From Amoebophrya sp. A120 (taxonomy: Eukaryota; Protista; Dinoflagellata), in the NCBI GenBank assembly GCA_905178155.1, contig CAJINV010000003.1, forward strand, positions 1,421,557 to 1,485,556: a stretch of DNA of 64,000 bases, read 5' to 3'. The first letter of the stretch is position 1. Each line of letters begins with the position of its first letter. The notes under the pieces are model-generated. The model did no database searches and was not told the DNA's origin. It was given only the letters and a program-made list of their open reading frames with translations. Made by a program: the position numbers and the translations under genes. Below, in pieces: positions 4,545-57,312 of the stretch.

Positions 4545-5140
4545 TGGAGTTTTTCAATAAATTTTTCCATTGTGTATTGAAGCTAATTTTTGAATTTCGT
4601 ACTGGTGCTTCATCGTGCTTGCAGCGTAGTACTCAAAACTAAGCCGCTCCAGTACATTGATTGTACTAGAGCGGCTTCGTTTTGATTGTGGAAATTAATT
4701 CACACTTCGGTCTCTCGCTGAGCACCATGCGCCTCTGGAGTTCAACTCCGCCCTGTAAAAGCAGTCGTTTGTTCTCTCTCAGCGCCAGGTCTAATATCGT
4801 GCGGATTTTTGTTTTTTTCTTGGAGATCCGTGCAATGTACGAGAAAGATCGAGATCCTCGTCTTTGTTCCTCCCATCTGATCTCAGATCAAAAATCACAG
4901 ATTCTGTGAGAAGTTCGAACAAAAAGCTTTTCGGATCAAGGTAATACGCGAGCGCGAAACTGCGTCTGCAGTCCTATTCGCAAGACATTTCTTCTCTTCC
5001 ATTTTAATGTAAGCTGTTCGTGTCAACATTTGGATTTGTGTGGTATTCTAGAGCATCTATCGATCCGTCATACATTTAGAAAAGTCTACTCCCACTTTCT
5101 ATACTTTCATCAAGCCCGAGCCCCACTCACTCTCAGCGCC

Positions 5141-7934: not shown

Positions 7935-8523
7935 AGAGAGGCCCTGAAGAAGTGCTGTGTCTGTCGTCGTGGCGTAGAAGAAGTGCCGCCAGCACGACGC
8001 GAGGAAAAGATAAATTTTGCAAACGAAGAATGAACACAACCCGAATTGTTGACCAACGCGCCGCAGCGCAAAAGAACCTGAAAGCAGCTTCTACAGCGAC
8101 CGGAGTACAATAAGCGTAAGAGGACGGCTGCCCCGCCGTCTTAAAGACCGTCTGACAGCCCTCGCAACAAAGACAAAATGAATTTCCAAAGTCATATCTC
8201 CGCGGCAAATGATGTGACCGGCGATAAACAGCATTGTTGTTTCTGACGGAATTATTTGATCCATTGGGCGACCATCCACTAGTGTTTGTGGTCGCGGGCT
8301 CGTCAAAACAGCCGTGTTTGGTCGTAGTAGCATAAATGAGATCCCCGTCTATTACGGACACTTGCTCGGATTTTTGAGGTCGATGGCAAAAGTAATAGCC
8401 AGTTCGTGGCTGTCGATTGATGGGCAGGAACAAGATGTCAAAGTTACAGAATAACGCAGGCAACCACCAGCTTATTCCTTGTTGACATCTTTTCTTCCGC
8501 GTAGTTTCTTTTGCGTGCCACAA

Positions 8524-23675: not shown

Positions 23676-26600
23676 TTGAAACTCGCGCAGAAAAAGATGT
23701 ACGCCGACGTGTCGCGGCTGCGACGGGCGGCGCAGGGCCAGCAGTACCCGATGGGGGTTCTGCGTCCGGGTGAGGACCGGAAGAAGCCGCTCGACACGCT
23801 TTTGTTCACCCCCGGTATGTACTTTCGGTACAACATTCGCACCAACACGTTGTACCACCAGGCGCTGCGGCAGTACCCCTCGACGGTGGAGGATTCCGGC
23901 TACTACTACGAGAACCCGGTGTTGGCGTTCTACACGGACTGCGCCGCCGCCATTCCAGACCACTTTTTCAACGAGAACGCCAAGGAGCACAAGCGCGTGG
24001 TCGAGAAGCGGCTGAACCCGGTTCGGGAGAACGTGGCCACGTACTACATGAAGTTTATGGAGTATTTGAAGGAGGCCCTTGCGACCTACAAGTGCCGCAA
24101 GATCTACCTGCCCTTCTCGGGGGGTTTGGCACACCAGTTCGAGATCCCGCAGGTGGTCTACCTGAACACCGAGACGCGGCAGTGCGGGAAGTTGCAGCAG
24201 GGGCACTGGTGGAACGTGGACCACCGGAAGGTTGCGGCCCTCGGAGTGCTGCACTCGGATAGCACGTTATACGATACGGCGATCCATGACTCCACGGAGT
24301 ACACCACGACCGTGGAATTTCTGGACCTGGCCCGGTGCTCCCCGGAAGTCGTCATTGTCTGCATCATCCGCCGCGGGTGGGGTGAGGGCGAGGTCACGCC
24401 GGGGATCCTGATCGAACCTAACAAGGAGGAGTCGGAAGACGACCCAGAGGCGCTGTCAGCGACGGCTTCGGACGAGTACATCGCTCACTTGTTTTATGAC
24501 AGCAATTGTAGAGTACAACTTGGAACTGCAGAAAATCAAAATGAGAACTGTTTGGTTTATACATTTAGCGATCGTGAATGAAGTTTCCTTTACATCATCT
24601 TGAAAAATGTTTGCTGCACGCTCCCACCGTTGCTACTAGGTCTTCAGGTGACATGCTTGACCAAACGTCAACCTTCCCAAAAAAAAATTTGCCACAAAAA
24701 AACAGGGAAGTGATGATTTTCGACGACCCGCGCCCGGATCCGGACGTGAAGCCGTCCCTGGAGGCCGTGAAATCCGACGCAATCCTATCCAATAAAAAAA
24801 CGTTGTTAGTGTAAGTTTGTGATGCGCAACACTCAAGATGATTGCGTGTGTCATGCATGGCATGCATCGTAAGGCCCATTAAAGGGCGTTTTCACGTACT
24901 ATCTGCGCATGACAGGTTTTTGCTGTCATGCCAGACAAATTTGTAATGCTATTCCTTCAAAAAAGTTACACCTACAATGTTTTTTTCTTGGATAAATCCG
25001 GGTGTCGCAGCTGGTCGGCGACACCATGAGGTTCGCAATCACGGAAGACCAGGAGTGGGGGCGACAGGCGCTGCTGCACTCCGTGGAGAACTTGGTGGAG
25101 TCGGGGAAACTTACCTCGGAAAAGGGCGACATCCTGCGCGTCCTGGAGGAACAGATTACGCTCGCCGACGATTACTTCTACCTGCTCGGGGAGAGGACCG
25201 AGTTCTGCAAGAACAACTTCTCCATGCTGAACCAGTTGAAAAACAAGTACGACGTCTGGCTGTCCTACACCTTGTCCTTGATGCAGGAGCGCGACCCAGA
25301 TATCTTGATTCGCGACCGCAACCACGCCTTGGAAACCGGAGAAGTGCTCGCGAGTCTCTGCAAGCAGCTGGCAGCCTTGGCCTACGATTCCAGTGATAGG
25401 GTAAAACTTTCATTTTTGGTGTGTTCTACAAAGAGTCTTCGAGTGCTGTCCACCCACTTGGCATGTTCATAGAAGCATCATGGTGACGTTGTTTTTGAAA
25501 TTTCAGCAGATACAAACAGGGGCGATGTTTATCAGAAAATAACCCGAAAAATCTATTTTATTCCAATCCTCCCCAGGTCGTCGAGCTTGCCTCCGTGCTG
25601 GCGCCCCAGCTCGTGCACTACTTCTGCGTGAAGCTGTACCAAAACGGGGACAGCAAGATGGGTGCGGGCACGGGTCCGGCCTTCGAGGCGCTGGTCGCGA
25701 ACATGGCGCGCACCTTTTTCTTCGACGAGCTGCAGCTGCACGCCTACAACCTGTTGATGGACCTGCAGAACGCCAGCAACTGGAAGGCACTGCTTCCCAT
25801 CGTTGCCGGGCACATCGCAGAGAAGCTGGGCGTGTACGTGCTGTGCACCTTCAGCCTCACCGAGGGCCAGGACCCCGTGGCCAACCGCTGGGCGTGGCGC
25901 CGCGACGCCGCGGAGCGCATGATGACCAACCTGCGGGAGGCCATCCCGAATATTCTGTACCCTGACCGGGACAACCACGTCCTCACCGCGTTTGAGCCGC
26001 TGTTCTTCCGCTTCTTGCGGAACGACCCGCTCGCGGCGGCGGAAGTCCCGAAAATGAAGCGGTACGGCGAGTTTTTGGCGACCTTGCTCACCCACGACGG
26101 GTTTTTGGTGCGCCAGTGGGGGTACCAGAAGGGAAAGGAGTACAAGAACCGCGCGAAGATGTCCGAAATTTACAAGCAAGCGATCACGGAAGTCAAACTG
26201 CGAATGGAGGTATACATAGGAACGTAGCTGTGTAGTTTGAGCGATTTACAACGATGGAAGGTGTTTTTGCATTTTACTTGTTTGATTGAGCACATTTTTG
26301 ATTTTTGTCACAGCTGTGAAGCTGCTGCTGCTCCTTGGATCCAGGTTTTTTTTCTGGATTCCAGCCTGTTTGCGTTTCTTTGTGGTTGTTTCCAATAAAC
26401 CAAAAACCCCTCCTGCTACTATCTAAACAGCGCGAGATGCTCTCTGGGAAGTACAAGGATGAGGAGGCCGAGAAGTGCTGGGCGGCTTGTTGGGAGGAGT
26501 TGACGATGACCATCAACGCCTGTTACGTGGAGATGAACATGACGGAGGGGTTCGAGCCCCGTTCCTTTCGCACCTTCTTCCTGGAGCTGCTGGCCGAGCA

Positions 26601-30688: not shown

Positions 30689-33600
30689 ATGACGGACCCG
30701 TTTGCCGCGGTTGCCAGCGCCTCCGGCTTGCCGGAAGTCAAAGCTGCGGCCCGTGCTTCATCGCGGACGCAGGGTGCGAAGCAGTTCTTTGATGTGCTCA
30801 AAAACGAAGCCGCCGGGGAAAGAGTGGAGCAGGCAATCTTCGCTTTGACGAACAATGCTGACGACAAAAAGTATCTATTCGCCTCTTGGACAATGCATGG
30901 TTTTTGTTGACATTTGCATTACTCCGAAAGCGGGGGTCGTAGGGTCCGGGCTGCCGAACCCGTGGAGAACTTGCGAAAAACTCGGCTACGCGTGTTTCTT
31001 GTCTAGAATATTAGAGGCTGCCGGCGGTCTTTCAAATATGATGATGATCCCGATGATGCAGCACTCCGCGAAAGTGACGCGGGCTTTCGCGTTGAGACTT
31101 CCCGTTACGCCTGCGACTGCTAGCCGGCGCGCCGTTTTGCGCCGAGGGGCCTCTGTGTGTCCGCGCCGCGCGCCCCTCCTCATCTGTAGTTGCCCGCGCC
31201 AAGTCTTGTAGGCAGGCTGCCGGGGCCGTCCGCTTGCGCCTTTGGTTTCCTTGGCATTTCGTTGGCCACATGCGCGCGATCTGCGCACTTGCTTCGCAAA
31301 GAAGTTGCTGCAGCACCATCGTGTAACGTACGTTACACGATGGCGCTCTGCTTGTTTGCCTTATCGCTTGCCGGCCTAACCAGGGGAGAGAGCCCTGCTT
31401 TTGGCCTGTCCATGGCACCATCGTGAGTAAAGTTAGCCACGACGGAAATGCGTTTGGTTGTTTTCGCAGCTTCGGGCGCACTGTGCTACGCCTGGGAGTT
31501 AAGGCCGGGCGGGGTGGCTAACGGCTCCACAGGCGTGCCAGAGGCCCACCAGAGCAAGGCAGCTTCCAGCTGCGTGGCGCGGTTTGGGCGGTTGTAGATG
31601 AGGCGCCGCGGTTGCAGCCTGGCGCCCTATTACCCAAGAAAACCGGCCACGGCTCTCATGCGCCAGAACTTGCGCCCGAACAAACTTGATCCAGAACTTG
31701 TTCCAGAACTTGTTCCAGAACTTGTCTCAGAACTTGGCTCAGAACTTGTCTCAGAACTTGCCAGAGTGGAGCAGGCAATCTTCGCTTTGACGAACAATGC
31801 TGACGACAAAAAGTATTCGCCTCTTGGACAATGGTTTTTGTTGACATTTCCAGCGCCCGTGCTCTCTGCTCGCTCGAACAAAAGATTGACCGACGTTCTA
31901 GTACCTCATTGCTGCTAGCCGTGGCTGTCAATTCATCTTGCCAATTCCGTTCCAGCATTCATTTGAAGAGAGCCCACTATCTGCAAAAACAAAATCAAAC
32001 AGCTACCGTATGCGCATACGGCAAGTCATCGGCGTGTTGAAGCAGGAGAGGTTCGGGGTGCTGCGTGAAGGTACCGAAAGCTTTTTTTTTACGCACTGTG
32101 TAGTGGGTTTGGGTGGCGTCGCATGGATCAACAATGGGATGGCAGCGTGCACCAAACTGACTGTATAAGTTCAAATAGTGATAACCATAACTAGTGCGTT
32201 GGAAAAACTACAAAAACTATAGGTATCGTTCGCGATGTGGTCGATCTTCGTGACCTGGTAACCACCAAAGTCACAGCAGCAGCGGTCAAGCCCGCATACC
32301 TGAACGAGATCAAAGAGCGGCTTAAGGACAAAGAGGTACTTACGGACAGAGAATCCATTTCTTTGACGGGTCCGTAGTCGCATCCGACTTCGAAGTGAAT
32401 ACTTATTTTGTCCGAACGCAAATCTAATTCTTCAACAGGTCATTTTCCAAACCAAAAACGTAAAAACAGTCGTCGCAGCAGGGCGGATCGCCATCGACGA
32501 CGGGGAACCATTCGAAAGCTTCATCGCCGGAAGGAGATGGGACAACGTCGGATGCCGTGGAAGCAAGCAAGGCAGCATCGGCGTCTTCTACGGCACCAAA
32601 AGCGCAGATGCCGCAACCACCGGCTGCAGCACGCGTGGCGGAGGTAGCACAACAACCCGCAGCGCGCGCCCCACCAGCAGCACCTTCCACCGCCACAGCA
32701 CCACCCGCGGGAGCGGGACCTCCCGCGCCAGCCGCTACAAGCAGTCCGTTTGGTGCCATGGGGCCGCCTCCGCCAGTTGCAGCATCGGCGCCAGCACCGG
32801 AACGCGAGAGTACCGCCACCTCGGGGGGCACATCTACTCCCCCGGTTCCAGCGCCAAGTGCGTTTGGTGGACCACCACCGTCCGCGGACGGCAGTAAAAG
32901 TTCGGTTACAACCCCAGCGGCACCGCCCGCGCCGCCCGTGCCGCAGCAACAGATGATGAACCCCCCTCCCACTCCGGTGTTGCAGACAAGCAAGAAGAGC
33001 CAGCAGCAGGTCCCTCCACCGCTCGCGACCTCCCAATCCTCCCTCATGCCCGTCGCTCCGCCACCCGCCACAGCGGGAGCAGCAGGTAGTCCCTCGCCGG
33101 CAAGTGCGACGTCGCAATTTCCCGCGTCAGGAAATCCTTCTCCCGCCTCCGCGGCGCCCCCGTCGGTATTAACAGAGCATCCGTCCTATCAAGTGTAAAA
33201 ATGTCTGGGTCTGGAAGAATGCAAGATTTGTGATGCAGGTTTTCCATGACCCATGAGGTCTGGAATGCGAAACCCAGCATGACAGATTCTTTGCGGTCTC
33301 TATCATGCCTTTCCCGCATGGGAAACTCCCTCTCAACTTAGTCAAAAGCGATAGGAAGGAAAGGAAAGTAGTGAATCGCGCAAATTAGATAGAGAGGATC
33401 AAGAATGGCGTTTCTAGTGCCACGCTTCAAGCCACCGCCGAAGAAGGAGAAAAAAGAAGAGGTGCGAAAATTAGACAGGCTGAGCACGCTCCTGGAGGAA
33501 ATGGAAAGGGATACAGAGAAGCTGCGAGAAAAGATAGAGAAGGAAAAAAAAGACCCAAATGAAAGAGCAACGGTAGCCGAGCTAATAGAAAAAAGGGAAA

Positions 33601-36600
33601 ACGACACAAAATTGACAGGGAAGGCGAGGCCAACCATGACGATCGATGAGATAAATAAAAGGAGGGGAAGCATGAAAATGCGTATACTAAAGAACCTGAT
33701 AGAAGTGCGGAGGAAGAGAAAGACACCCATGACAAAGTGGCTGCGTAGGACGCCGGAGAAAGACGCATCAGGAAAGGCGCTAACAATGAAACAGAGACAG
33801 CATATAGCGAGGGCAATGAGATTGAAAGCGGGGGCGGAAAAAATGAAAAAGCGATTTGCCGCAGCGATAGGAAGTGAGGAGACAAACACGGAGCTGGAGG
33901 ACGAAAGAGACAAGAAAAGGGCGCTAGGAATAGTCCGTCTAAGGAGGATGAGCAGAATACAGTGGAAGATACATATCGGCGATTACATGAGAAGGTGGAG
34001 GGCGCAGAATAAGAAAAAGAAGAAGGCAAAGGCTCTGCTGAGTAAGGATAGAAAAGAAATAATCAATACAAACTCGAAGAATGCACGGAAGAAACTAGCG
34101 CACGCGCTCGAGTCGGAGGAAGGATACAGGGAGTGGCAGAAGCGGGCTCGAGCGCTAATAGAGACGAAATCGTATAAAGGGAACGAAGCCCTAGTTAGCT
34201 TGTCGCGGGTCGAAAGATTAGAACACGAAAAGAAGAGAAAGCAGCGGGCTGCACAAGGACAAGCAAAGAGGATGAAAGAAGCTCGGAAGAGGGAAAATAA
34301 CACACAGAGAGCAGACCGGCTGCGGAAAATTCGGGAAAGGAGAGAAGAAGCGGACAAAAGGGCGACGATGAGGAGCGCGGGTGGTGGCTGAGGGAAGCGT
34401 GCAAGTCAACAAGAAAAATTGGGTCGATGAAAAGATAAGATCTAACTAAGGGAGAGAATAGAGATCAAAAGGAAAACAGTTTAGCAACAACAAAAGAGAT
34501 CAGTAAACCGCAGGGCACCGACTAAAAAGATGGTAGAGAGGTGCAGTGTGTTCAAAAAATATAAGATGACCAAAAAACAAAAAGCAGCGATGAAGTATAT
34601 TGGTGAAGCAGAGAGAAGGCGTCAGCTTAGAGCTGTAGACTGAGAAGAAGTAGTAGACTTTTTGAAATGGCGATGAATAAACAGGAAAGTAGCGACCTCG
34701 TGCATTTTATGTCAAGTTTTTAGTATTATTTTGTTCCCTTTATTCGAAGAGGGTAGAATAGTAAACAGCTAGCGTAGCAATAGTAGGAGTAGACGGCTCT
34801 GATAGTCAAAAACAGTTAAAAATAATACAAAATAGTGAAGACAAGATGGACGGGAACGAAAGAAATGAGGATAGAAAAGTGCAGGAAAGCCTGCTACCGC
34901 GTGAAGCACCGGAAAGACGAGACGATAGCAAGGAAAGGACGGGCGCAGAAGAAAGGGAAGGCGAAATGGGAGAAGAAAAAGAAGATTGCAACGACAACGA
35001 GGAGGAGCCGGGCGGATTATGGAAAGGAGAAACGCAAGAAGAAACGGGGGAAGAAGAGAAAAAAGAAAGAGATGATGGGCAGGATGTTCTAAGAAGAGAG
35101 CGACATATGTTCTGGAACATAAACGGGGTTAAGCGCCTGAATGCGATTAGACTAGTGAAAGCTTACAGAGATATAGTGCCAAAAATTACAGGGGCGAGCT
35201 GCGCCGAGCTGAAGACCGCCGCCCTGACACAAGATCAGGCAGCCTTCAAACATGTAGAAGAGGAGATGAAAAGATTAGGAATGGAGGGGAGGCCAGGGAT
35301 ATACTTCGCAGCCGCCACAGACATGAAAGGCGTGGCGTCAGAAATGAACTCGGGAGCCGTAGGGATAGTATACACAGACGAAATGAAGAAGCTACCAAAA
35401 AAGACAATGAGAAAGGAGATTTTCCGAAGGGAGAAGGGGGGCGCATTCTTCCAGAGAGATGTGACAGACAAGGAGGATATACTATTATGGATGATCGCAG
35501 CGGAGGACGAAAGAGGAATGCTAGTGGTCGCGTTCTATCGGAGACCGGCAAAGGACACACCGAAAGACTGCGAAGAGGTAGCGTATATAAGGAAACAGAT
35601 GCAGGAAATGACTTCAGCGCTCGAAAAAATGATAGAAGAGGCAGGAATAGCAATACTGGCGGGAGATCTAAACTGTCAGTATCAAATTGATGAAGGAGGA
35701 AAGGTGAAATTTGAAAGGGAACGCACAGGAGTGCAAAAAGTCTACTTCAGCGAAATAATAGAACCGATACAGAAGATTTTCAACAAACACGCTGAAACGT
35801 TAACAACAGGAGGCCCAACATGCTTCCGAAACCCGGAAAATCCGACAACGATTGATATAGTAGCGATAGCCGAAAAAAGGGCAAAAGTTGTGGCGAAGAC
35901 CTGCGACAGAATTCAAATACCGCGGACAGTAAAAGAGGAAAACGGAGAAGACAAGGAGGCAGAGGGGGAGAATAAAGAAGAGGAGTCGGACCACGTAGCT
36001 CTGCTAGCAGACATAGTGTGGATCCCAGAGCCCGAGAAACCCACAGAAGAACAAAAACAGAAGAAAGAAAAAGAGCAAAAGAGGTGGAAATTTAACGCGC
36101 GCTATACGCTGATGGTGCCGACAGTTGAAAGCTCAAGGCAGCGGATCGAGATCATAAAAGGGAAAGAAAGACTTCAGAAGAAAAACCCTGTCACGCAGTT
36201 GGTGAAATGGCCGAGAAAGTCGGTGACGTTAGAAAGACTACAGCAAGTGATGGAAAAAGCAGGGACGGTGCCAGAAGATCGTAGGAGCATGCTAGGGATG
36301 CAAAAATGGCTGATGGAGAAACTAGGAGAGGCAGGCGTGCTGAAATTAAAAGAAGTACCGAAACAGGACGCGAATTACGAAAATTGGCAGAAGAAGAAAA
36401 AAGAAGAGCGAAAAACGCAGGAGAAAGAAGAGAAGAACGAGGAAACCGCACGACAGCAGGAGCAAAAATCAAAACAGGACGAAATGGAAAAGGCATGGCT
36501 GGCGTCATTCGCAGAGAAGCCAAAGAAGGAAGAGAAAAACGAGAAAGCGGTTTATGAGACGGCTAGAAAGGTGAAAGAAGCTGTGTGCGGGGTAGGCAGA

Positions 36601-39600
36601 GGAATGCCGATGGGGGAGGCGAAAGAAGTAACAGTAGGCGGCACACTAGTGCAAGGGGTGGAAGCAGCGACAGAAAGGATAGCGAGTAGCCACCTCCTCA
36701 AGTGTGAATTCGTGAGAAAGCAAAATGACAAAAAGCACACGTATGACGGAAAAGAGCTCGAAAAAGCGCTAAGACAGCTCACGCAAGCATGTAAAGAAGT
36801 AAAGAGCATACGATTTACGGGGCCACAATTACAAGCACATGTCTCAAAGTTAAACAGTGAAGCAGCAGGCATGGATGGGCTCCGACAAGGAATATACCGC
36901 GCCCTCACACCAGAACAATACCAAGTGCTAGCAGAGGTCTTTAATAGGTTTTTAGAAGAAGTGGAGGAGTATGAGATGAAAAGAAATGAGGGAAGGGGGC
37001 CGAAGCTCCTGGAGGAGCACCTCAATGCGGCGCAGGTGGAACTGTTGAAAAAACAAACAGCAGCAACAACGGCAATAGAAAAGATCCGGACCGTGATACA
37101 GGGGACAGCGATAATGAGGGTGTTGCTGAGCGTAGTGGTATATGAAATGGTGCGGGTAGCCGACAAAAATGACGCATTCACCCGATGCGGTTCAGCATCA
37201 AAACCAGGAGCAAGCTGCCAAGCCACAGCGCTGCAGGTCTTGGAGACATGTCACGAGGGGGAAGAGAGGGGCGAAGCGGAAACACCGGACGAAAGAGAGG
37301 AGGGAGGTAATGGGAAGGGGAAAAGAAGAAAGGAGACGGTAGTCTTTGGGCTAGATGCGTCCAACTATTTCAACAATATAGGGCTACCGAGGGCAGTAGC
37401 AGCATACAGAGCTGCAAAACTACACCCGTGTTTCATAAAGTTGATAATAGTAACAGCGTGGACAAAGGATTTATGGATCAGAAACGGGGATTGTTACGGA
37501 CATGTACTAAGACACCGCGAACTCATTCAGGGCGCAGTAGAAACGATGTTAGCGGGGACCCTGATTTTCCTCCCAGGGGTAGAAATAATCGCGGAATTCC
37601 TCGAAGAAATCTTTAATGAAGACGGTAGGGCTGAAGAGGAAAGGCTAAAAATAGCAGAAGCAAAGATGAGAACGAGGATTAAAAGGCTTTACAAAGGGGG
37701 CGACATCGATACAACTTTCCCCGATTACAATGTCAGAGAAGAAGTCGACGAGATCTACCTCAAAGAAGCCCAGCCAGTAGTCACGGGATACAGAAAGGGA
37801 GAGAAGGTAACGACAGAGCAGGGAAAAAGAAAGGTGAATGAGAAAAGAAAAAGGGTGGAGACTCGATACTACTCAGGAACACTCCCCGGAGACGGGAAAA
37901 GAAGATGGACCCTATGCGTGCAATACGTGGACGACGGCACAGTTGTAATAAAGTTCTTTATCGAAGATATACAAATAGTAGCGCGCGCGCTCAGAGCAGC
38001 ACGCTGGGCATATGAGGAAATATACGCAACCGAAGGACAATTCTTGGCACCACAGAAGTGCGAAGTTGCAACGTCGATAGAAGACCCGCTGAAGGTAAAC
38101 GTGATCAGACAGGCCTTCCAGCCTTTCGGGATTTTGTTCGAGGAAAAGATATTTCTGAAGATTCTGGGGATCAAAATAGTGCCAAAAGACAAAACGGAGC
38201 AAGCCAAGGCCCTGCGGGGGCAGGTAAGACAAAGTATAGGGATAGGACAACACTTGGCGTACCAAGTAATGGCGAAAAGGGGAAGGCTCAACGGCGAAGA
38301 ACTCACGTGGGTAGTGCAGGTCTTCTTCGTGTCGGCAATGATATACTTCCTGCCAGTGATGCATTTATATTTCGACCTAGGAGACTGGGCGGAATTGATG
38401 GGCGAAATGGCGCTGACAATAGCCGAAACATTGGGAATGACAACGGAGGCAGTGGAAGAGCTGATGGCCCGAACAGAAACAACGGCGGAGACATTCTATA
38501 GGGTAGTGTTCGGGATGAATTTACTCGGACTAGCTGACCCGTACACGATGGGACTGAAAACGTTGCGGGCAACGGCGCAGGCAAACTACCTAACAGACCC
38601 GGCCTTGTTCGCACCATTAGCAACGACGCCAGTGAAGGTAGTAGGCGAAGCAAAGGCGGGCATCCCGAAAACAGAAGAACGAAAAATGCTGAAAAGAAAA
38701 GAAGCCGACATAGCACTGCTGCGGGCGCTGAAGGACGGCGCGACAGTCAGGCTATCGCCGGGGAGTGACCTGCGTGCAGTGGGGATCGTGAAGGAGAGAA
38801 GCGCGCGGGCCCCCCTAAGGGTAGAGGATCAGTATACACACAGGGGGAACGCGGGATTGGTAGTCAGCAGGAACAGAAAAGGAGGCCTCGGGAAGAAAGG
38901 TCAGAGCAATAGGATGCAAAAAATATGGGTGAAGCATGCCGGAAACGAAAGAAGTACAACCGTCACAGTACAGGAGGCAAGTGAAAGGACGGAGACACAC
39001 CTGAGGACGATAGAGACAAAAGTGGAGCACCTAAAGACTGAAATAAGAACAGAGGAAAGGACTTTCGTGGCATATTGCAACAACGCAATGAGGGCCATAG
39101 AAATAGTCACAGAGAAGAGGAAGAAAGAAGGCGGAGCGGTGCAGATTATACTGCTAGACTACAACGAGTTAAGGGAGAAGACCAGAGGGATACTACGCAA
39201 AGGGCACGGAATAGGCTTGGAGCTACAGGAGACAATAGAAAAAGCCGAAAGTGAGGACCCGGGCCTAAATATAGTAACGAGAAGGGAAAAAGGAAATGCA
39301 AGCAGAGCAGAAACGATAAGAAATATAGACGGAGGGACAAAAGAAGAGATACCGCTCAGGGTGGCCAATGTGTTAAATCACGACAATGAGTATACGGACT
39401 GGGTGCGGTTCGACTTTGGGACGAAGCGGATTCCACTGAAACCGGTGTGGGAATGGCCGGAAATGTCAAAAATAGAAAGGCAGGTATACATACATAGGAA
39501 AATGAAGGATGAGGAGACAGAAGGGGACAAAAAGAAAGAAAAGGCAGAAGCTGGGGATGGCGAGGAAATGAAGCAAGGCTTAGGAGAGAAAGACAGCGCG

Positions 39601-42600
39601 AAATCACAAAAGAGGAAAGAAACGAAAAAGAACACCAACACAGAGAGGGTAGGAAAGGGGAGTGGCGCTGCAAGTAGTCAAAGCAGAAATAGCCGGGAAA
39701 ATGTAGAAAGAAAACAAGAAGAAAAAGGGGAAGAAAGAAGGGAAGGAGAGACACTCTCAGAAACTATACTGCGACTAATCGAGAAAGAGAAGAAGAAAGC
39801 AGAGGAAACTGGTGACGAGATGGCGCAGGGGGCATTCAGAATAATCCAGAAAGCGACGAAACTGTTGCAGGAGGTAGAGGAGGCGAATAAAGAAGATGAT
39901 GGTAGAAAGTTAAACGAAAAAGAAAGGGGGCGGGAGGAAGGAGACCAAGAAGAAAGGATCAGCGAAAACGGAGAAGAAGAAGAAAAAAAAAGCTTCTACG
40001 AGGCGCAAGAATATGAAGGCACTCGGAGAGGATACGTGTTTAAAAGAGGGGCGATGGGACAGGGATACTATATAGATCAGGGTCCAGAAGAGGCAACGCG
40101 AACATTTTTTCGGAATCTGGTGGCGTGGGGGGAAGAGGAGAAAAGGGACGCGATTAATAAGGAGCGGGCGGAGGAAGGTCAAGACGAAAAAGGGGTGGAC
40201 CAAGAGCAGCAAAAACGGAGAAAAGTGGAGAAACAAGACAAGGAAGCGAGCCAAAACGGTGGTAGCGAGGACGAAAAAAAGAAGCGAACGACGGAGGCCT
40301 CCAATTTCCCCACAGTCGAGAAATTAATGGCAGATGACCCCATGACATTGATGCAGAAAGAGAATGTACAAAGGGAGAAGGAGAAGAGGATACAAGAGGA
40401 GAAGAGGAGGAGGAGGCAAAGGAAGTACGAAACTCCTATGCAGCGAGAACTAGCCCAAATGTATAGAGCCCTAGAAAAAGAAAATAGTGATGGAAAGTGA
40501 ATGAAGAAAGAGAAAAAAGTGACTGCAATACGTTTATTTCTTTTGGATGAGATTGATGAATGGATAGCAAAGTAGAGGCAATGTGAGGCCTTATACATGA
40601 ATGAAATAAAGGAGCAAAGAAGACACAGACCGGGGCTCAAAGCGAAAAAGAAAATGCGGGGTGTTCTGGCGGGTGCAGAGGGAAGAGCGTAGACAAAAAA
40701 TGTAACAGAAAAGAGCGAAAAAAAATGAGGCGACTGCGTATGGTTCTTCTTTCGACACGTTCCACGCCAGCCCGGAGGGGTGCGGCGATGCTAATCATTT
40801 CGTTCCCGCCAGCCGTAAAGGCACGGCGCTGCCTATCCTCCCCTCGTACCGCCGAACCGCATGCGCTGACGCATTAGGAAACGAAAAGAAAAAGAAAGAG
40901 AAGAAAGAAAAACTATATAAAAGAAGTGGTGCCAGGGTTGCTATTTTAAAAGACTGCGCTAAGGCAGCACCCCCCTTCCCCAAGGGGTCCCCCCGGGGCG
41001 GGCGCGATGGCGGCTCTGCGAATGCGGAGCTCCGCGGGCCGTTTCTATGGAAACGCATATAAAAGGGTGCGGGAAGAAGATCGGCAAAACGTGTCTGAAA
41101 GGGACACGCCGTTGGGTTGCCCGCCATCGTGATAGGATCACCGTGTCTGATCATTAGACCCCCAGTATACTGTTTAGCGCGCAACCGGCCACGCACGTAG
41201 TCCTTCGAGCAAGTTTGTAAGACTAACCCATCAAGGCAAAACTGGAACTCCACCTTGCTCGCGGGCTTGGATGGTAAGGCAGGTCAGCCACACATAGCGC
41301 CCACTGGTTGTAGTCATGCGTAAGCAATCGATAGCGGTTTGGCAGGTGCAGCCGGGTGGTAGTTAGGAAGTGGACCGTGTCTCCACCTAGGGGTATTGGC
41401 AGAGGCTAAATCTGTTCTAACGCCCAGGTATTGGCAGAGGCTAAATCTGTTCTAACGCCGACCCGCCAGGAGTTAAATGGTACTACTACTACTAACTTAG
41501 TCAAAAGCGCCACCTAGGGGTATCGGCAGAGGCTAAATCTGTTCTAACGCCCAGGTATTGGCAGAGGCTAAATCTGTTCTAACGCCAACCCGCCAGGAGT
41601 TCTGTTCTAATGGTATGTAGTGAGGTCACCGAACGGTTCTAACCGGGGAGTTTTTTTGCCAGCCAGACAGCAAAACGGCCGCCAGTTTTCAAGCGGGCGG
41701 AAGCGTTTTTGGACATAAAAAGTTTTCACTTATCAAGCGGCCGGGGCTTTGATAGCAAACAAGCCCGGTCGAAAACTATCGATTCGCACTTGATAAAACG
41801 ACGCAGGGGAGCCGGCAAAAGGGGCGCCCTTTTGAGGCGCCCACCGCCTTGGTTTCTGGCGATTTGGGGCGCCCAAAAAGGGGCGCGCAAAAAACGCGCC
41901 CAAAATCAGAACAGCGAAACAGCATGGCACGGCCGCGATTTCGGAGCATTTTGGGCGGCCGCGAAAGCGGCCGCCTTTTCGCCGGCTTTAGAGCCTGGGA
42001 AGCATCGCAAAAAGCGCCGGCGTGAAAAATAAAAACGCGAAAAAGAAAAAGCGCCCCAGACGCGCAAAGCCAATCCGCATGCTACGGGCCCGATTTTTCT
42101 TCGCTTTTTGGGCGCCCCCCGTGGCACCCGGATCGGCCCCATAGCATGGGGGCTGGCCTTCGGAAAGGAATTTCGGGAATTTGCCAAAATTTGCGATGTT
42201 TATGAAGCGGCCGCCATACCGTGCGGCCTAACGTTACTCGCGGCGGTATGGTGAGCCCATAAAAAGCAAAGCCACGGCCAAGGCGATGGCCGGCAAGAAA
42301 ACGCCCACGACCTCACTACCTCCGCCCCGGCGGCTATATTTGGTACTACTACTACTAACTTAGTCAAAAGCGGACAGCTTCTGGCACTCACGCAACACAG
42401 ATTTTTGCATTATTTAGATTTAGCATGACAACTTCAAATCTTCCAGACCCAGACATTTTTGCATTTGATACGTCCGCAAGTAGCGTCATCACGGCAGAAT
42501 CGTCGCGCGTGAAACCGTTGACGCCATCAAAGCAGCAAACGGGCGGGGACCCTTTTGGTGATGTGGATCCCTTCGGAACTCCGGGGCAAAATCCGTTTGG

Positions 42601-45600
42601 AACGCCCGGACGGCCCCCACCGGAGGTGCTGGCGGCATCGAAACAGCAGGCCGCTGGTGCGCGCGTGCCACCCGCGCCGGCACCAGCAACTTCCAGCAGT
42701 GCATCTGTGGTACCAGCAGGACCGCAGCGGGCGCAACCAGCCGCCGCTAGTACCGGTCGTGAGCCGCCCCCACAACCTACGGGTACAGCGAACCCTTTTG
42801 GAGGACCAGCACCTGCGTCGCGAGTTGCAGCCCCCGCCGTGGTGCAACAACAACAGCAGGCTTCTCCCGCAGTACAGCCGGTGAGGGCAAACACAACGCC
42901 CACGATAACAGAAGCAGCGCAGCCTCCCGTCGTGGCAAGTGCGAAGCCGAAGGTTCCGTCGCCAAGGGGAGTGTCGGTGCCTCCCGTCACCTCACCAAAT
43001 TGGTTCGAGAACGAGCAGAAAATGGATAGCATCGAGGCAAAGCTGCAGAAACTGCGGGAGCAACGTAGTTTGGTTTTTTTCGAATGAGGATGCTTGAAAA
43101 ATTCGTCGATTTTAGTTTTACGTTGATGAAGAAACTACTTATATCACTCCGGGGAAGAAGTGACGCTCCATTGATGATCCCGATTATCTGGTAACCAAAT
43201 GCGTGCGCGCGCGCGCGCAGAGCGCGCGCCGGCCCACGAAGCCGGCGCGCGCGCTCTGCGCGCTTGCGATATTGCTTAGCAAACGCAGCGCGAAGGCAGT
43301 TGCCGTTACCATATAGGGCAACCGCCGGGAGGCGTGAAGGTCAGGGAAATGGCCAGAAATGAAGCGGGAGAAGGGAAAAAAAGCGGACCAGATGGGAAAA
43401 TGGCCAGGAGGTCAAAAATGTCGCAAAAACGGCAGAAACCAAGCGGGGGAAGGTGGAAAAAGAGCATTTTTGCTGTTTGGCCCACTTGATATCTGAAAAA
43501 GAGACGGACTGTTTTTTGCTCCGCCCGCTGGGCAGCTGCGTTGGAGAAGCAGGCCCGCGACCTGTTCGGAAGCCTTGGGCCGCTTCGTAACTGGAAAAAG
43601 TTGGAAAAAAATGACAAAAAATTGCTTCATAGCGTGGGCGGAAGCAATCGTCGGATTTTGTGCAGATCACCCGGGCCACTTAGAAAAAGGAAAAAGATGA
43701 GAAATTGCGCAAAAGCGCAATCCTTCCGCAGGCTTCAAAACTGCCAGCCAGATGCGGGCGGTAAAAATGTGCAGGTCGCTGGGGCCACTTAGAAACCAGA
43801 AAAAAGCGCGAAAATTAAAAGAAATCGAGAACCCTCGGCAGGCTTAGAAACTGGCCACCAAGGGCGGTCCGGCGGGCGCGCGCTTACGCCGTACCATCGC
43901 GATTGGGGAAAAAAAACCGCACTAGAAGCGGGCGGGGGTATGTCACAAAATCCCCATTTGCCCTGGGTTGTGAGCAGAAATTCGGCATCTTCCCCGGGTC
44001 TGAAATGGCCGATTTTGGTGGCCCGGAAGGGTTCGCGGGTTTTCGGCCTTCCACATACCTCCCGGGCCAGGGGGCCAGTTTGTCATGCAGGGGGCTAGAA
44101 AGGATGCCCCGCTGCGAGCTAGCAGACCGGATTTCGCATTCAATGCTTATCGCAGGAACCTGCGATAAGCTTTGAATGCGAATCCGGAAGCCTCCGATGA
44201 CCCGGGATAGCAGTGGGATTCTAATTAAAAAGAAATGGTGGTGGCAGCCGCGCGGCGCAAGCGCGGCCCGCAGGGCCGCGCTTTCGCCGCGCGGCTGGTT
44301 AGGCTTTCGCGCTGGTTAGATTTTCGCGCACGCATTTGGTTACCAATATCGCCCTCCGGGCGCGACATTCATATGATTTCTATACTAACTTTTCACGCAT
44401 TTAATCGATGAATCATTAGATCTATCTTGCAAAAAACCTTTTCCACCATCTGTTGCTGCAAACGACATTCGTTTTTCTTTCAATGTGGAGACGTTGGAAA
44501 TCAAAAGCGTCCTATCGTCTACCTTTTGCAGCCTTCACGCAAAGTTGCATTTTTTTGCAAAAACCAAACACAAAAACGTGGTTTTCGTTTTCAGTTTACT
44601 TTTCGTTTGCCTTTTCTCATGAACAAAAAAAAACAAACCAGGTATCGACATGGAGCACCAATTTGCACGCACACGAGAGACGGTCACGCAGGAGCGAACC
44701 CGCCGAAAGTCGGAGGTTCGCACCCCCGACAGCAAGCAGCAGGCTGCGTTCGAGAAGGATCGCGTGCTGCTAGAATCCGAGCGCGCGAAGTTGGACAAGG
44801 ACCGATCGGCTTTCGAAGACCGGGTGCGGCAGTGGGAGGCGGACGTGCAAAGACAAAAATCCCAACTGGATTCCGACAAGGCGCTTTTGGAACAGCAGAA
44901 GCACGCTTTCAACCTGTCGAAGCAAGCCGCTTCCAGTCACAATTCCCCCACAGCCTCCAAGGGCTCGGTCATGGGCGTCACCTCGCAGGAGCGAGAAGCA
45001 TTCCAGGCGGAGCAAGCCGCGTTCCAGGCCGAGCGAGAAAACGAGCTGAAGAAAATCGAAGCGGAGAAAAAGCGATTGGCCGTCGAACGAGAAGTGTTCA
45101 AGAAAAAACGTACTTATTTTGGCGATACTTACTATACGTGCGTTTTCTGGTTTCTGATTCCAGTATTTTGGTTCTATAATTGGAGTCGGCAAAAAAAATC
45201 CGCCAGGGTTTTTTGAGTCGTTTGTTTTTCGCATCTTGTTCTGTTTTGCTTTCGCTGATTCATTGATTCCTTCCTCTATGCTTTGATACCTGTTCGCTAT
45301 CGAATGAAATTCAGAAGCAGAACTGTTGGCGTCGGGATCCTCTGGAGCCATTGCCCAGGCCAATCTCGAAGCGGTGGATCCGCAGCTGCGAGCTAAGTAC
45401 GAACACTTGAAAAAGGAGTACCGCAACCGGGCAAAGGAGCTGGAGGACGTGAAAATGGAGAACACACTGTTCCGCCGGCTGGAGCAGAAACGAAACCAGG
45501 AACAGAAATTCACGGAGGAGGAACTGAAATACACCTACGAAAGCAAAATCAAGCAGCTCAACGCCTTGCTGGAGGAGAAGCGTATTACTTACTGCTGAAT

Positions 45601-51903: not shown

Positions 51904-54318
51904 ATGCGGCAGCCGGTGCCTCGGGCACACCTTACGACAGGGCGTTCTTTTCTGTTGCAATTGCGGTCTTTTGCTCGTCAGTCGAAGGGAAGTGCCATCC
52001 GACAGAAGGCCGATAAGAGCCGGCTAAGCAGCCTGGACCGCGAGCACCAGAAAACTAAAAGACTGGCGGTCGACGCCCTGGAGACGCGGAACGAGTGGAG
52101 CACGACCAGGGACCCCGGTGCCACGGACGCCGCGGAGAAATACGCAAAAGCAGTGTCGCGGCGATCGCAATTCGAGCTTCCGGAGGCACCCAGTGGCGTG
52201 CGCAAGAGAAGTTTGGCGCAGCTCGGTGGAGGCGAAAACAGAAGTTCCTCCTCGTCGTCATCTTCGAGTGTACTAACCACTGCGCAAAGTGGTCGCGCAC
52301 CGAGTCAGCGGTCCGTCGGAGACATCACCGACGCGGAGATCCGCGGAATCTTTCCCGCCGACGTGCTCTCGTCTCCGTATCCTGCGGCGAGCCGGCTGGT
52401 GAAGCGTCCACATCTCTGGATGGACAGCTGCATGCCAGGGGAAAGCGCTGAAGATGAGCACGGGGACGATTCCGACAGCAGACTAAAAGAGATCGCCGAA
52501 TGCGAAGCGGAGTTACAGCGGCTTGGAGCTGGTGGTGGTGCAACTACAACAACTGGGAGCGACCACACTGAGACCAACGATGTTGACCTCGCGTACACGG
52601 ACCTAATCGACGGCGACGACGATGCATTGGTCGACCAAGCATCCTCGACGTCTTCGCGCAGTGCGGCAAAGAGCGATTACAACACGCGAGAACAACAAGA
52701 AATCGTGGTTCCCAAGTTGGCCGACGTGGGTAAGTTCGAGCGGTTTTCCCGTGACGACCTACTGGAGCTGCTGCCCGAGGGTTTGGGTGGGGAGCTGTCG
52801 CGTGACCTGATTTTGATTCCAAGCCAAACAAAAGATGTCGGTTTTATGCTGCGTAAGCCGACAGTGGAGATCCTGACACAAATGGCCTACCTGCAAAAAG
52901 ACGCAGAACAGGTCTTCGATAAGAACAGTGGAACAGGCGGACCTCCACAGGATTCGACATTAGACGGAGTGTTCGACGTGCGAAGTAAAAATTACGGAAA
53001 GAGGAATTTCTTATCCCCGCCACATCGAAATCGGGCCGCCTTAATTTCTTCCCGCGCAGGGTGGCTGTTGGAAGGGAAGAAGGGTGTCGGGAAGAGCGCC
53101 GTTTTGAATCACGTGGTCGCGTGGGCCCGGAGGAACGGGTGGCTGGTCGTTTTCGAACCGTTCGCTGCAAATTATGCGAAGGAAATTTCGGACATTGCCC
53201 GGTCCTCCAACTCCGGCATCTACGTGCAGAACTCCCACGCGAGACGGTTTCTGGAGCGGACTTTGTTGAAAAACGCGGAATTCTTCGAGCAGATTCCGGT
53301 CGACCTCGCCGTGTACGGCAGGGCCTGTGTGGACGGGGAACCCAGCGGAAAAGTGCACCAGGTCTACGACGAGCTCATCCAAAAAGCGGTGGACAAAGAG
53401 CTCGGCGCTAGTACTGCGGGAGAAGATCATGCGAATACCTCCTCCTCGTCCTCAACAGTGGAAAGGAATCGCGAGCGCCTACGGTGCTTCGAGAAGTACC
53501 GCAGGCGGGTGGTCCTGCCCTCGCTCAAGGCGCAGCTGCCCGAGCCCGAGAACCTGTACCAAATAGTGCAGTTCGGGCTCGACCACGAAACCTGGGCCAC
53601 GCAAGCGGTGGCGGAGCTGATGCGGCAGCTGCAGGTGCAGACAAAGTTCCCGGTGCTGGTCTGCGTGGACGAGTGGAACGAGTGCTTTCCCGTCTCCGAT
53701 TTTGTTTCCATGCGGTACGACGGCACCAGATTCGGCGGCTACATCCCGGCGTACCACTTGTCCATGTGCCGGCGGTTTTGCGATTTCGACGGGCACCGGT
53801 TCATATCAAATGCAAAAATGTCTGGGTCTGGAAGATTTTGAAATTTGTCATGCTTGTCTGGCATGACCAAAAAGTTTGTGATGTGTGTCCAAGAAGAGAC
53901 CCTTTTGCCTGTCATACAAAAACGCAGTCTGTCATGCGAGAAACGCAACACAAAGAAGCGCAGATATTTCTCATGCTTGCCTGTGCATTACAGAGCATTC
54001 ACTATTCCCAGCGCAGCATTACAAGTTTCCAGACCCAGACATTTTTGCAATGCATAGTTCAAGCGCGGGCTGAAGCTGTACTCGACGTCCTGGTACCGGA
54101 TGAACCGGCGGGATTACCGCCCGGAGCTCTTGGGTGTGAAGCCGGAAAGCATCAAGCAGGTGCGCGAGTTCTCCCCGTTCGAGTTTGCAAACTACTGTGC
54201 GTATTTCCGGTTACAGAACATTACCTACAACTTTCCGCGGGAGAAGCTCGAGCAGTTCTGGATGCTCACCCAAGGAAATGGGTGGCAGGCACGCAGAACG
54301 CTCAGTATGCTGTACTAG
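51904..54318 (+). CDS. DAP3: Mitochondrial small ribosomal subunit protein mS29/DAP3 (exons 51904-53803, 54062-54318)
   Basis: Transit-peptide-like N-terminus, LRKPTVEI, P-loop GKKGVGKS, WARRNGWLVVF, FPVLVCVDEWN, VREFSPFEF. Frame is restored by introner removal (HRFKRGLK). Confidence 0.85.
53804..54056. mobile_element. TIR introner E (TATCAAATG family, opposite orientation to B)
   Basis: TIR of about 30 bp; TSD GTTCA (53799-53803/54057-54061). The interior matches the reverse complement of B. Confidence 0.93.
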
Positions 54319-54967: not shown

Positions 54968-57312
54968 ATGGCGTCTTCCGGAACAACCAGCCAGAGTGAA
55001 GAATCGCGGTTGTTGAAGGCCGCGGGGGCGGCAGTTGAGGCACGTTCGCTTTCCTCAACCGAAAAGCAGGAAGTAGTACAGAAGCCAGCGTCGTCCGATG
55101 AGACGTGGCTTGGGCGACATGTCCGAGAGCGGCCAGTATTGACAACAATTCTGTGGATACGCCGAGGAAAAGGCTACAGCTCTTGACTAGACGGCCTTAG
55201 AAGTGTGGCTGGATGAACATGAACATGTTGCTTCGCCTGCTTTGCATGAGAGAAGAATAGGGTTACTTATGATACTGCTCCGAATGATAATGATGTATAA
55301 TTAAATCTTGTTCATGGTCTCATCAGCTGAAGAAAGTAGCCCACAGTCAGGAAGAAATTTCTTTTTGCTGAGGATGGTAGATGCCGTTGATGCTCGCGGC
55401 AAGTGCCGGATTGATAGCATTCAACAAGACGCTGGTGAACGGTCCCTTTCCGTTTGCTATGCAAGAAAAAAACTGTGTAACAGGTGTAACTCTGTAATGC
55501 AGAGCATGCAACAGTAGAGTTAAGTACGCCTGTCATGCGCATGCCAGACGACCATGAAGTCCTCTTTTCGTGTGTGTTTTCCCTTACACGCCACGAACTA
55601 CATTGGCAGGCTTTCTGTGTCATGTAGAGCAAATTTTTGATGCTGTCAGGCAAAGTCACACGAACACAGTTTTTTTCTTGGATATTTACCACCGCCCTGA
55701 CGTGCTGGCACATGTTCTGCTGCACTCTGTTCGCCTGGACCATGTTTGCGTTGCAGCCGGATTGCTTTCCCACGATGAAGACGCTGCGGCAGCAAGCGGA
55801 TGCGCACCAGACACGGCAGAGTCTGCTTTTCGTGGTGCCCATCGCGGTGTGTTTTAGCTCGTCCGTGGTGTTCTCCAATGTTGCGTACAAGTACGCTTCC
55901 ATCGCTTTTCTGCAGATGATGAAGGAGCTGAATGTGGGGATCATCTACTGTTTCTCCCTTCTCGCCGGGATTGAAACGGTGCAGTGGCGTCTCATCCTCG
56001 TGCTCACCGGGCTTGTCGGCGCCAGTTACTTTTCCATCACGGGGGAGGCCGATTTCGTGCTCCTGGGCTTCCTCGTGCAGGGGGCGTGCCAGCTGCTCGA
56101 GTGCACGCGCGTGGTCGCCACCAGCAAGGTACTCTCGACGCTCAGCCTGGGGTTCACGCGCATCGACGCCATGTCCTTCATGCTGGTCATGTCCCCCGTG
56201 TCGGTCCTCTACCTGTCCGTCGTGCTCTGGATCCGCTGGGACCCCTTGACGCAGGTATGAGATGAGTGCACGACTCCCCCTCGTCCCCGTGCTTAGTACT
56301 CATGCAACATGAAGACCCCTAAGCCTAATCGGCTCTTTGCCTCTTGGCATTACTTGCATGACGCGTTGTTCATTCTGGCGGCCCAAACAGAAACAGCACG
56401 ACAATCCTATGCAATTTTTACACGCAAAGCCTCCATTCTTGGCGACGCTACTTGTATCGCTGTTCACCACGCAGGGGCCCTACAAAGGATGGGGAGCAGG
56501 GGAGTTCTTGTGCACTCTCATAACAGGAGCGGTTCGCGGAGAACTTTTCCCTGCTGGCGGGAAACGGGCTGGTCGCCGTGTATTGCAAGAAAAAAGTGCT
56601 ACAGTTACACATTGTGTTGCAAGACCGGCAACACAGAGGACCTTTCTCATGCAGGAAATGCTTGGGAGCCTCGTTTCCTTCCTGTTTTCCCTTATGACCT
56701 TCGCATTACAAGTTTTCTCTGCCACACAGAGAAAATTTGTGATGCAGAAACTCCAACAAATGTGTAACTGTAACACTTTTTTGTCGTGATACCGTGCTGC
56801 TGAACATGATTATTGTGCTGACGATGACCGCCTTCTCGCCATTAACCATGATCGTGGCTGGAGTCGTCAAAGACGTCGTCATCGTCTCCGCGGGCGTACT
56901 GCTCTTCCACGAAGTCATTTCCGCACAGCAGTGCTGTGGCTTCACCCTGCAAGTCTGCTGTGTAGCCTGCTACTCCTATCTGCGCGCGTCGTCGTCGTCG
57001 TCGTCCGCACCTGGTGCCAAGGCCGAGCCGCCGAAAGAAGTAGTACGTGGAGAGGATCTTCACGCGGCGGACGAAGAGACCAAAATGCTCCTCCGTTCTG
57101 GGGAGCACCCGGTCGTGTCGACGGATGATGACGGCAGCGGAAGTGCGTCAAGCTCTTCTGGCTTGACTGGCTCTGTCGCGGGCGGGGACCTAGTGGATCA
57201 TCGGCACCATCAAATTCGCTCCAACAAAAAAGCGCCGCTGGTGCGCGTCGACAAGGATTATGGTACGACGAGCAGTACTAGCCATGGCATTTCCGCCGCG
57301 GAGCAAGTTTAG
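54968..57312 (+). CDS. Triose-phosphate/nucleotide-sugar transporter (TPT, DMT superfamily); first exon uncertain
   Basis: SAGLIAFNK, FPFATALTCWHM, SNVAYKYASIAFLQMMKE, NGLVAVLLN, SPLTMIVAGVVKD after removing two introners and canonical introns. Confidence 0.87.
55458..55684. mobile_element. TIR introner F
   Basis: TATGCAAGAAAAAAACTGTGT / ACACAGTTTTTTTCTTGGATA; TSD TTTGC/TTTAC with one mismatch. Confidence 0.87.
56581..56791. mobile_element. TIR introner G
   Basis: 33-bp TIR with 5 mismatches; TSD CCGTG (56576-56580/56792-56796). Removal gives GLVAVLLNM. Confidence 0.9.

Follow-up and report, generated by a model that had tools for sequence, protein, structure and literature searches.

A divergent LINE family with a preferred insertion position inside introners of Amoebophrya sp. 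A120

How did an intact long interspersed nuclear element (LINE) come to lie inside an introner, itself inserted in a coding exon, and what becomes of the host gene? The question is raised by a stretch of 64,000 nucleotides of the dinoflagellate Amoebophrya sp. A120 (assembly GCA_905178155.1, contig CAJINV010000003.1, positions 1,421,557 to 1,485,556, forward strand), hereafter called the window. Here an introner with terminal inverted repeats (TIRs) is split by a LINE encoding an apurinic/apyrimidinic endonuclease (APE) and a reverse transcriptase (RT), followed by a second insert. The results leave little doubt that members of a divergent APE-RT LINE family have entered introners independently, at one site and on one strand. 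The outline proposed to account for them is also quite probable, each of its inferred steps being less secure than the whole: a LINE family, fixed in position and orientation within one TIR introner family, would insert by target-primed reverse transcription after a box-guided nick, and the filled introner would still be spliced.

Insertions at one position of an introner family

The filled introner occupies 33187-42470 and is bounded by a 5-bp direct repeat, CGTCC, at 33182-33186 and 42471-42475; all features are on the forward strand unless otherwise stated. Its left part (33187-33350, TIR at about 33187-33216) and its right part (42373-42470) are separated at a 16-mer which, by sequence comparison over the whole window, occurs exactly three times, at 33335-33350, 41494-41509 and 42357-42372. 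The first two copies of this target site duplication (TSD) enclose the LINE, 8,143 bp long (33351-41493), the last two the second insert. Without inserts the introner measures 148+114 = 262 bp from TIR to TIR, and deletion of 33187-42475 (9,289 bp) restores the frame of the host gene (EHPS|ASSV), whose proline/alanine-rich product has no Pfam match in the upstream exon (32470-33186); the downstream exon is followed over 42476-43067. In these respects the sequence-only reading, which had described a 262-bp TIR introner split at a 16-bp site and a frame restored by its removal, was correct.

The start of the introner, TAT followed by seven letters and AAA, and its 5-bp direct repeat fit the introner elements of A120, described in PMC7789003, as far as its text goes, as having inverted repeats of TAT, seven variable letters and AAA, direct repeats of 3-5 nt and non-canonical splice ends; a search of the text of its one supplement did not recover the TIR letters, its figures lying outside this scope. 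The family reaches a very high summed depth in the DNA run X1. In the window it is also represented by three complete empty paralogues, of 262 bp (62302-62563, minus strand, the closest subfamily), 252 bp (6918-7169) and 253 bp (53804-54056, minus strand), and by one half copy. The first had been presented as the empty sister of the filled element. Its length is as claimed. It is, however, a reversed paralogue with an imperfect direct repeat, and 11 of the 16 letters agree at the homologous site (62400-62415, minus strand).

In order to collect other copies, metagenome_contigs were scanned with an internal 27-mer of the LINE, situated 60-90 nt ahead of its tail and carrying no information on the flanks. 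The 12 other loci found are exact matches, not a genome-wide census, and do not necessarily belong to the strain of the window. Eleven of them include the 3' junction, and in ten this falls in the same introner family, on the same strand, at columns 152-154 of the 282-column introner alignment, the window insertion being at 153. In the twelfth locus (L006) the 3' end is missing, and the 5' flank is the targeted introner; in the exceptional one (L008) the LINE lies inside another TIR element, likewise with a TAT start and bounded by a 5-bp direct repeat of its own. The site specificity claimed before is thus borne out by the tabulation of flanks which had been proposed as a check; the original argument, that two inserts share one nucleotide, is weak by itself, since a template jump could also give a tandem. 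Under a rough null model, ten of 11 insertions falling in introners of whatever kind, if these occupy 17% of the genome, have a probability of 1.9e-7, and the observed strand and position, once inside an introner, one of 4e-23, the latter for a 3-column interval chosen after seeing the data.

Could the copies have been scattered at random, only those in introns surviving selection in a gene-dense genome? Introners account for 17% of the A120 assembly, according to the parts of PMC7789003 considered, and some LINE ends do lie elsewhere. Selection, however, could not confine the copies to one strand and to three of about 260 columns, and this explanation is judged extremely improbable.

Multiplication of one or two old LINE insertions, through transposition or gene conversion of the filled introner, would also produce a constant position. 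Introners are mobile, and the introners hosting one subfamily of the LINE (B, below) are related, being 78-90% identical. The LINEs, however, are more similar to each other than their host introners in 55 of 55 pairs, so that the insertions are independent: identity is 98% for LINEs against 66% for hosts between members of subfamily A, and 97% against 83% between members of subfamily B. Near-identical LINEs (96-100%) are found in hosts just 55-88% alike, and truncation points and tails differ. Such hitchhiking is accordingly considered very improbable, though slightly less so than chance insertion.

The insertions vary in length (114, 260, 374 and 8,143 bp), and TSDs of 16, 17 and 16 bp are seen at L003, L005 and L009, respectively. 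Two subfamilies can be told apart by their tails. Subfamily A, with a (TAC)n tail, has six members, including the long copy of the window; subfamily B, found at six loci (L002, L003, L004, L007, L008 and L011), ends in TCAAAAC followed by one of three tail units, (GATAC)n, (AAC)n or (GAAAC)n, and shares about 83-84% identity with the window LINE at the 3' end. The sequence GCGTAGCA directly follows the insertion in all five subfamily B cases within this introner family, and in none of the six of subfamily A. The (TAC)n tail had been noted to run into the AACT start of the target; this is true of the window site and peculiar to it, the targets at other loci starting with GCAT, GATT, GCGT, CGCG or TCAC. 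Microhomology between tail and target, considered as a targeting rule, was rejected.

Loose contig ends of individual sequencing runs were also inspected. Among the ends listed, X7 contributes one 3' end and four 5' ends that fall in the introner, and X3/X5, which are one sample, a further 3' end; two of these were checked against the window paralogues (no match in 100 shuffles), the rest by eye. Several more are LINE variants, as judged by eye, and a 9-letter end could not be placed. These counts refer to the listed ends, a further 53 in one set and 421 in another standing outside them.

Some of the data weigh against a strict rule. Four listed contig 3' ends leave the LINE at 41480-41481 and enter TAC-like sequence outside introners; exits of this kind occur in three contigs of X1, three of X2 (same sample as X1; the places probably coincide) and one of X5. 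Moreover, a full TSD is present in just three of the five loci with both ends, L011 and L012 having none of that length. Target specificity is not absolute. One X5 contig of 2,543 nt opens with the 3' end of the LINE (window 41428-41480), continues with ATG GCG GCA and the letters that follow, and possibly represents a LINE remnant at the 5' end of a gene.

The retrotransposon and its truncated companion

The sense strand of the long LINE is purine-rich, and its two open reading frames (ORFs) are uninterrupted. ORF1 (33405-34391) would encode a Lys/Arg-rich protein of 328 residues, devoid of cysteine and without Pfam match. ORF2 (34846-40500) encodes 1,884 residues: residues 90-383 carry APE endonuclease motifs, residues 673-1108 RT motifs (YVDD at 1027), and the C-terminus is long and charged. 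The 3' untranslated region (40501-41493) contains a tandem repeat of about 35 bp close to its end and terminates in the tail TGG(TAC)4T at 41478-41493. The 8.1-kb APE-RT element announced by the sequence-only reading was found, with two open ORFs, endonuclease motifs and a predicted RT fold.

Sequence searches with conventional libraries were of little help. Pfam gave no match for four window proteins, the RT included; PDB returned nothing meaningful, either by sequence or by profile; word-based homologue searches (RT region; one alignment) gave no matches, and no named reference RT was among the matches of the homologue searches. With the RT region as query, a complete phmmer scan identified eight proteins at E values up to 0.001 (P0001-P0008), seven of them named Amoebophrya in their source records. 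In an alignment of ORF2 with five of the eight, endonuclease and RT residues are invariant, including the putative catalytic aspartates D837 and D1029-D1030. Three relatives (P0001, P0004 and P0008) match Exo_endo_phos families, P0008 alone above the Pfam cut-off. The gene model of another, P0002, joins a V-SNARE C-terminal domain to the LINE RT and is probably a mis-joined prediction. A short Gly/Tyr motif, GYVFKRGAMGQGYY, encoded at 40030-40075 in the charged C-terminus of ORF2, is absent from the five aligned relatives.

The endonuclease assignment rests on the motifs WNING, GDLN, TIDI and SDH, which we take to be those of APE endonucleases, and on the Atlas, in which ORF2 residues 108-425 adjoin Exo_endo_phos clusters (0.95) and the RT region adjoins RVT_1 clusters (0.94), the two placements counting as one source of evidence. 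Folding of the endonuclease region from a single sequence gave a mean predicted local distance difference test (pLDDT) of 32.6 and no usable model. The RT model, built from eight sequences, has a pLDDT of 65.5. Its 13 best Foldseek matches are all L1 ORF2p or R2 (E 2e-6 for L1 ORF2p), and comparison by structure gave a Z of 15.8 with R2Bm (root mean square deviation 5.1, 462 residues aligned) and of 14.4 with L1 ORF2p; R2 and L1 also top the VIA-align list, and their scores are close to each other. The family has no long terminal repeats (LTRs) and shows a simple-repeat 3' tail, TSDs of variable length and 5' truncations. By its predicted RT domain, its putative N-terminal APE endonuclease and these structural hallmarks, all of which are present, the element is an APE-type non-LTR retrotransposon.

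A CCHC zinc knuckle in ORF1 or in the C-terminus of ORF2 is typical of L1 and Tx1 elements. ORF1 has no cysteine and ORF2 a single one after residue 1250, so that the LINE has no zinc knuckle, which sets it apart from Tx1L and Tx2L. The 34 ORF2 substitutions listed, to be read beside a further 394, fall on a third position in 26 cases, and of 32 codons 27 are synonymous; this bias indicates purifying selection on the family. Summed depth in X1, which does not equal copy number, is about one to five times the single-copy value in the ORFs and climbs to tens of times that value at the 3' end, the profile that 5' truncation would produce. ORF2 is a new, divergent, site-selective APE-RT, invisible to Pfam and apparently recently active. 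The host exons are uncovered in the RNA runs X8 and X9, and RNA contigs reach the LINE ORFs in traces only; these blanks are uninformative on expression.

The second insert is related to the LINE, with whose 3' sequence it starts: 41510-41601 is 97.8% identical, over 92 bp, to 41383-41474. The most plausible reading of the insert is a truncated LINE, about 117 bp long and comparable to the 114-bp copy carried by L009, whose tail appears to have been interrupted by a 725-bp repeat; its body would thus occupy 41510-41615 and its TGG(TAC)4T tail 42341-42356. The non-coding inner repeat (41616-42340, no strand assigned, ends uncertain by up to 5 bp) has a summed X1 depth of about 18,000, against 45 for single-copy sequence. 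It contains 11-bp subterminal inverted repeats (41617-41627 and 42309-42319) and a short hairpin near its 3' end, and TGGTA is found on both sides. Its 5' end is seen in other contexts, in seven X1 contigs after an introner end and in two loose ends of X3. Together with the LINE 3' sequence at the start of the insert, this led us to reject the idea of a short interspersed nuclear element (SINE) with its own tail. A recognition hairpin shared by LINE and SINE was likewise dropped, stem-loops at the 3' end of the LINE or in the second insert not exceeding shuffled sequences (z 0.87, 0.23 and 1.24).

Subterminal inverted repeats and a short 3' palindrome are also described for the non-autonomous Helentrons HINE and DINE-1; according to the sections of PMC4067079 considered, HINEs insert in T-rich sites without TSD. 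The likeness to the 725-bp repeat, flanked by TGGTA on both sides, is a resemblance only. One X1 contig joins 42345, at the 3' end of the inner repeat, to 42439, 32 nt from an introner end, the same distance as that of the L008 insertion.

Recognition of the target and related systems

The duplicated 16-mer did not prove to be the conserved determinant: its mean column conservation among targets is 0.62, compared with 0.87 for a box of 21 columns ending 9-10 nt before the nick. In the window this box, a candidate recognition site, lies at 33305-33325 and terminates in GCATGGGAAA at 33316-33325. A matrix was derived from five filled and three empty sites, the L008 site being excluded; the latter nevertheless ranks among the top 14 of 127,938 window positions, with exact spacing, and ten of the 14 appear to fall in other TIR elements of the window. 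Several facts temper the role of the box. The TIRs and other boxes of the introner are as conserved as this one, the L008 comparison was prompted by eye, and of the several similar boxes present in an introner (the 6918 copy has five) only one is used, so that a short box is insufficient and a wider context matters.

In the mechanism proposed, the endonuclease would nick 9-10 nt downstream of the conserved box, presumably recognised by ORF2 itself, and insertion would proceed by target-primed reverse transcription, with a chemistry modelled on L1, R1 and Tx1. At the window locus the truncated copy would have come first, to be interrupted by the 725-bp repeat, and the long copy last; it may have used the left target copy because only that copy still adjoined the box. 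The host would go on removing the filled introner from its mRNA, probably at low cost.

Recognition might instead be indirect. A protein sitting on the repeated GCATGAnAAA boxes of the introner, such as a transposase or a splicing-related factor, could recruit the LINE, which would then nick at a measured distance with an unspecific endonuclease. This would account for a variable sequence at and after the nick (0.62) with a constant spacing of 9-10 nt, for the high scores of similar boxes in other TIR elements of the window and for the retention of the spacing by L008 in another TIR family. The use of one box among several speaks against it, as does the preference of subfamily B for introners of the GCGTAGCA type, entered in five of five cases and in none of six by subfamily A, which fits a direct reading of local sequence. 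Furthermore, the endonucleases of Tx1L and R1Bm are sequence-specific by themselves, according to the portion of PMC1950540 considered. Tethering is thus held to be a possible but rather unlikely alternative, and direct reading of the box by ORF2 is moderately favoured over it.

Seven further inverted-repeat elements, several with a TAT start, are present in the window (2032-2339, 24786-24994, 55458-55684, 56590-56782, 59723-60009, 60963-61295 and 63009-63228). Four of them contain boxes like GCATGACAAA, so the box may be common to several introner families.

The closest known systems are Tx1L and Tx2L of the Tx1 clade, APE-type non-LTR elements which likewise have a non-autonomous DNA transposon as their site-specific target; for Tx1L in Xenopus laevis this is Tx1D, a non-autonomous piggyBac (PMC4494074, PMC1950540 and PMC6719617, each considered in part). 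In contrast to these, the present LINE targets a non-canonical intron in coding exons, up to 45% divergence separates its targets, among which the duplicated sequence is not conserved, and its RT escapes Pfam and PDB sequence searches. Specificity for a multicopy target, a trait of the Tx1 clade, is present here but common to other clades, and hence not diagnostic. A second parallel is the crocodilian SINEU-3, a Tx1-dependent SINE with about 90% of its copies in Mariner-N4_AMi; as in the window, one non-autonomous DNA transposon is the target, the TSD has 16 letters, and tandem insertions sandwich it. Truncated copies served to exclude hitchhiking, a test similar in spirit to our comparison of LINE and host identities (these points from the sections of PMC4494074 considered). 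SINEU-3 differs in being a SINE, in its old, disrupted transposon target and in having no link to splicing. R1Bm, TRAS/SART, Keno and Utopia share site-specific insertion into multicopy sequence, according to the part of PMC4640811 considered.

For the A120 introner elements, with which the host element agrees, the text of PMC7789003 considered describes no nested LINE. Some A120 introners have been attributed to non-LTR elements (PMC12130899, in the parts considered); in its file 8, the four A120 rows with this attribution, among 6 of 118 Amoebophrya places, gave no LINE peptide match. No description of a LINE targeting introners was found in the open-access literature. LINEs and SINEs that target non-autonomous DNA transposons are known; what is new is a non-canonical intron as target and a deeply diverged lineage.

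Probable removal of the filled introner from the mRNA

Direct information on the host transcript comes from a contig of 5,198 nt in run X3, which omits two GT-AG introns as well as 33182-42470 (9,289 bases) and shows no difference from the window in the exons; the downstream limit of the host exon given above is that to which this contig follows the window. X3 is taken to be RNA, a guess backed by the skipped GT-AG introns. The joint 33181/42471 is equivalent to the junction 33186/42476, for which a search in RNA had been suggested, and the reading frame is open across the joins. None of the six equivalent cut positions yields GT-AG or GC-AG. The host element is removed from mRNA at non-canonical ends.

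That this product stems from the filled allele is likely, at a strength below that given to the targeting itself. Depth in X1 is the same for the unique flanks (45 and 44) and for exact pieces of the LINE 5' region (47, 42 and 42), a sign that the filled allele predominates in that sample. In the opposite case, true targeting would go with improper splicing of the filled allele, the spliced contig coming from another strain or an empty allele, or the assembly would have misplaced the long copy. In its favour, X3 and X1 are different samples, no listed read or piece spans the whole locus, and two X1 contigs join 33335 to 42358; the latter are probably paralogues, possibly an empty allele. Frame restoration at other filled loci is suggestive only, being clear for L003 and L012 and ambiguous for L005, L009 and L011. 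Conversely, single-copy depth shared by flanks and LINE leaves no room for a second full-depth allele, the X3 exons match the window without a difference, and both TIRs, together with exact 5-bp direct repeats, are preserved in each of the five filled introners for which both ends are available. Improper splicing therefore seems unlikely, to about the same degree as tethering.

If splicing of the filled introner holds, its consequences go beyond this locus. The safe havens of R1-clade and similar elements are rDNA, telomeres and snRNA genes, where one redundant copy is destroyed; the targets described here lie in different host genes, and rescue by splicing would apply. While known site-specific LINEs sacrifice a redundant copy, this one would enter single-copy coding genes, since its target leaves the mRNA, a putative benefit that would make it a new form of safe harbour and the whole a nested parasite of a parasite, a retrotransposon inside an intron-making DNA transposon. 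How Amoebophrya splices non-canonical introns with no detected U1 snRNA is an open question, in the text of PMC7789003 considered, and filled introners, with 0.1 to 9 kb of foreign interior, are natural experiments on whether the ends alone define an intron. A more general picture can be offered as a speculation, which we regard as doubtful: a diverged LINE lineage would parasitise introners as spliced-out shelters in single-copy genes, guided by a box shared among TIR introner families and cutting at 9-10 nt regardless of local sequence; its subfamilies would track those of the introners, and splicing would need the introner ends alone, a growth from 262 bp to 9.3 kb leaving removal exact. 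ORF2 is of interest both for the evolution of targeting specificity and for insertion tools, and automated introner catalogues may mislabel LINE/introner composites.

A few other features of the window concern its repeats. An Rfam scan of the window gave no matches. At 63297-63385 only the left arm of the targeted introner family is present, breaking off in a repeated unit. A unit of 50-60 bp occurs in six copies of 92-100% identity (58096-58177, 59160-59220, 60035-60103, 61482-61535, 62266-62301 and 63387-63443), one of which directly adjoins the 62302 introner. Past the downstream host exon, 43028-43800 is a further high-depth repeat, with a summed X1 depth of 4,500-9,200 and a palindrome at 43213-43263.

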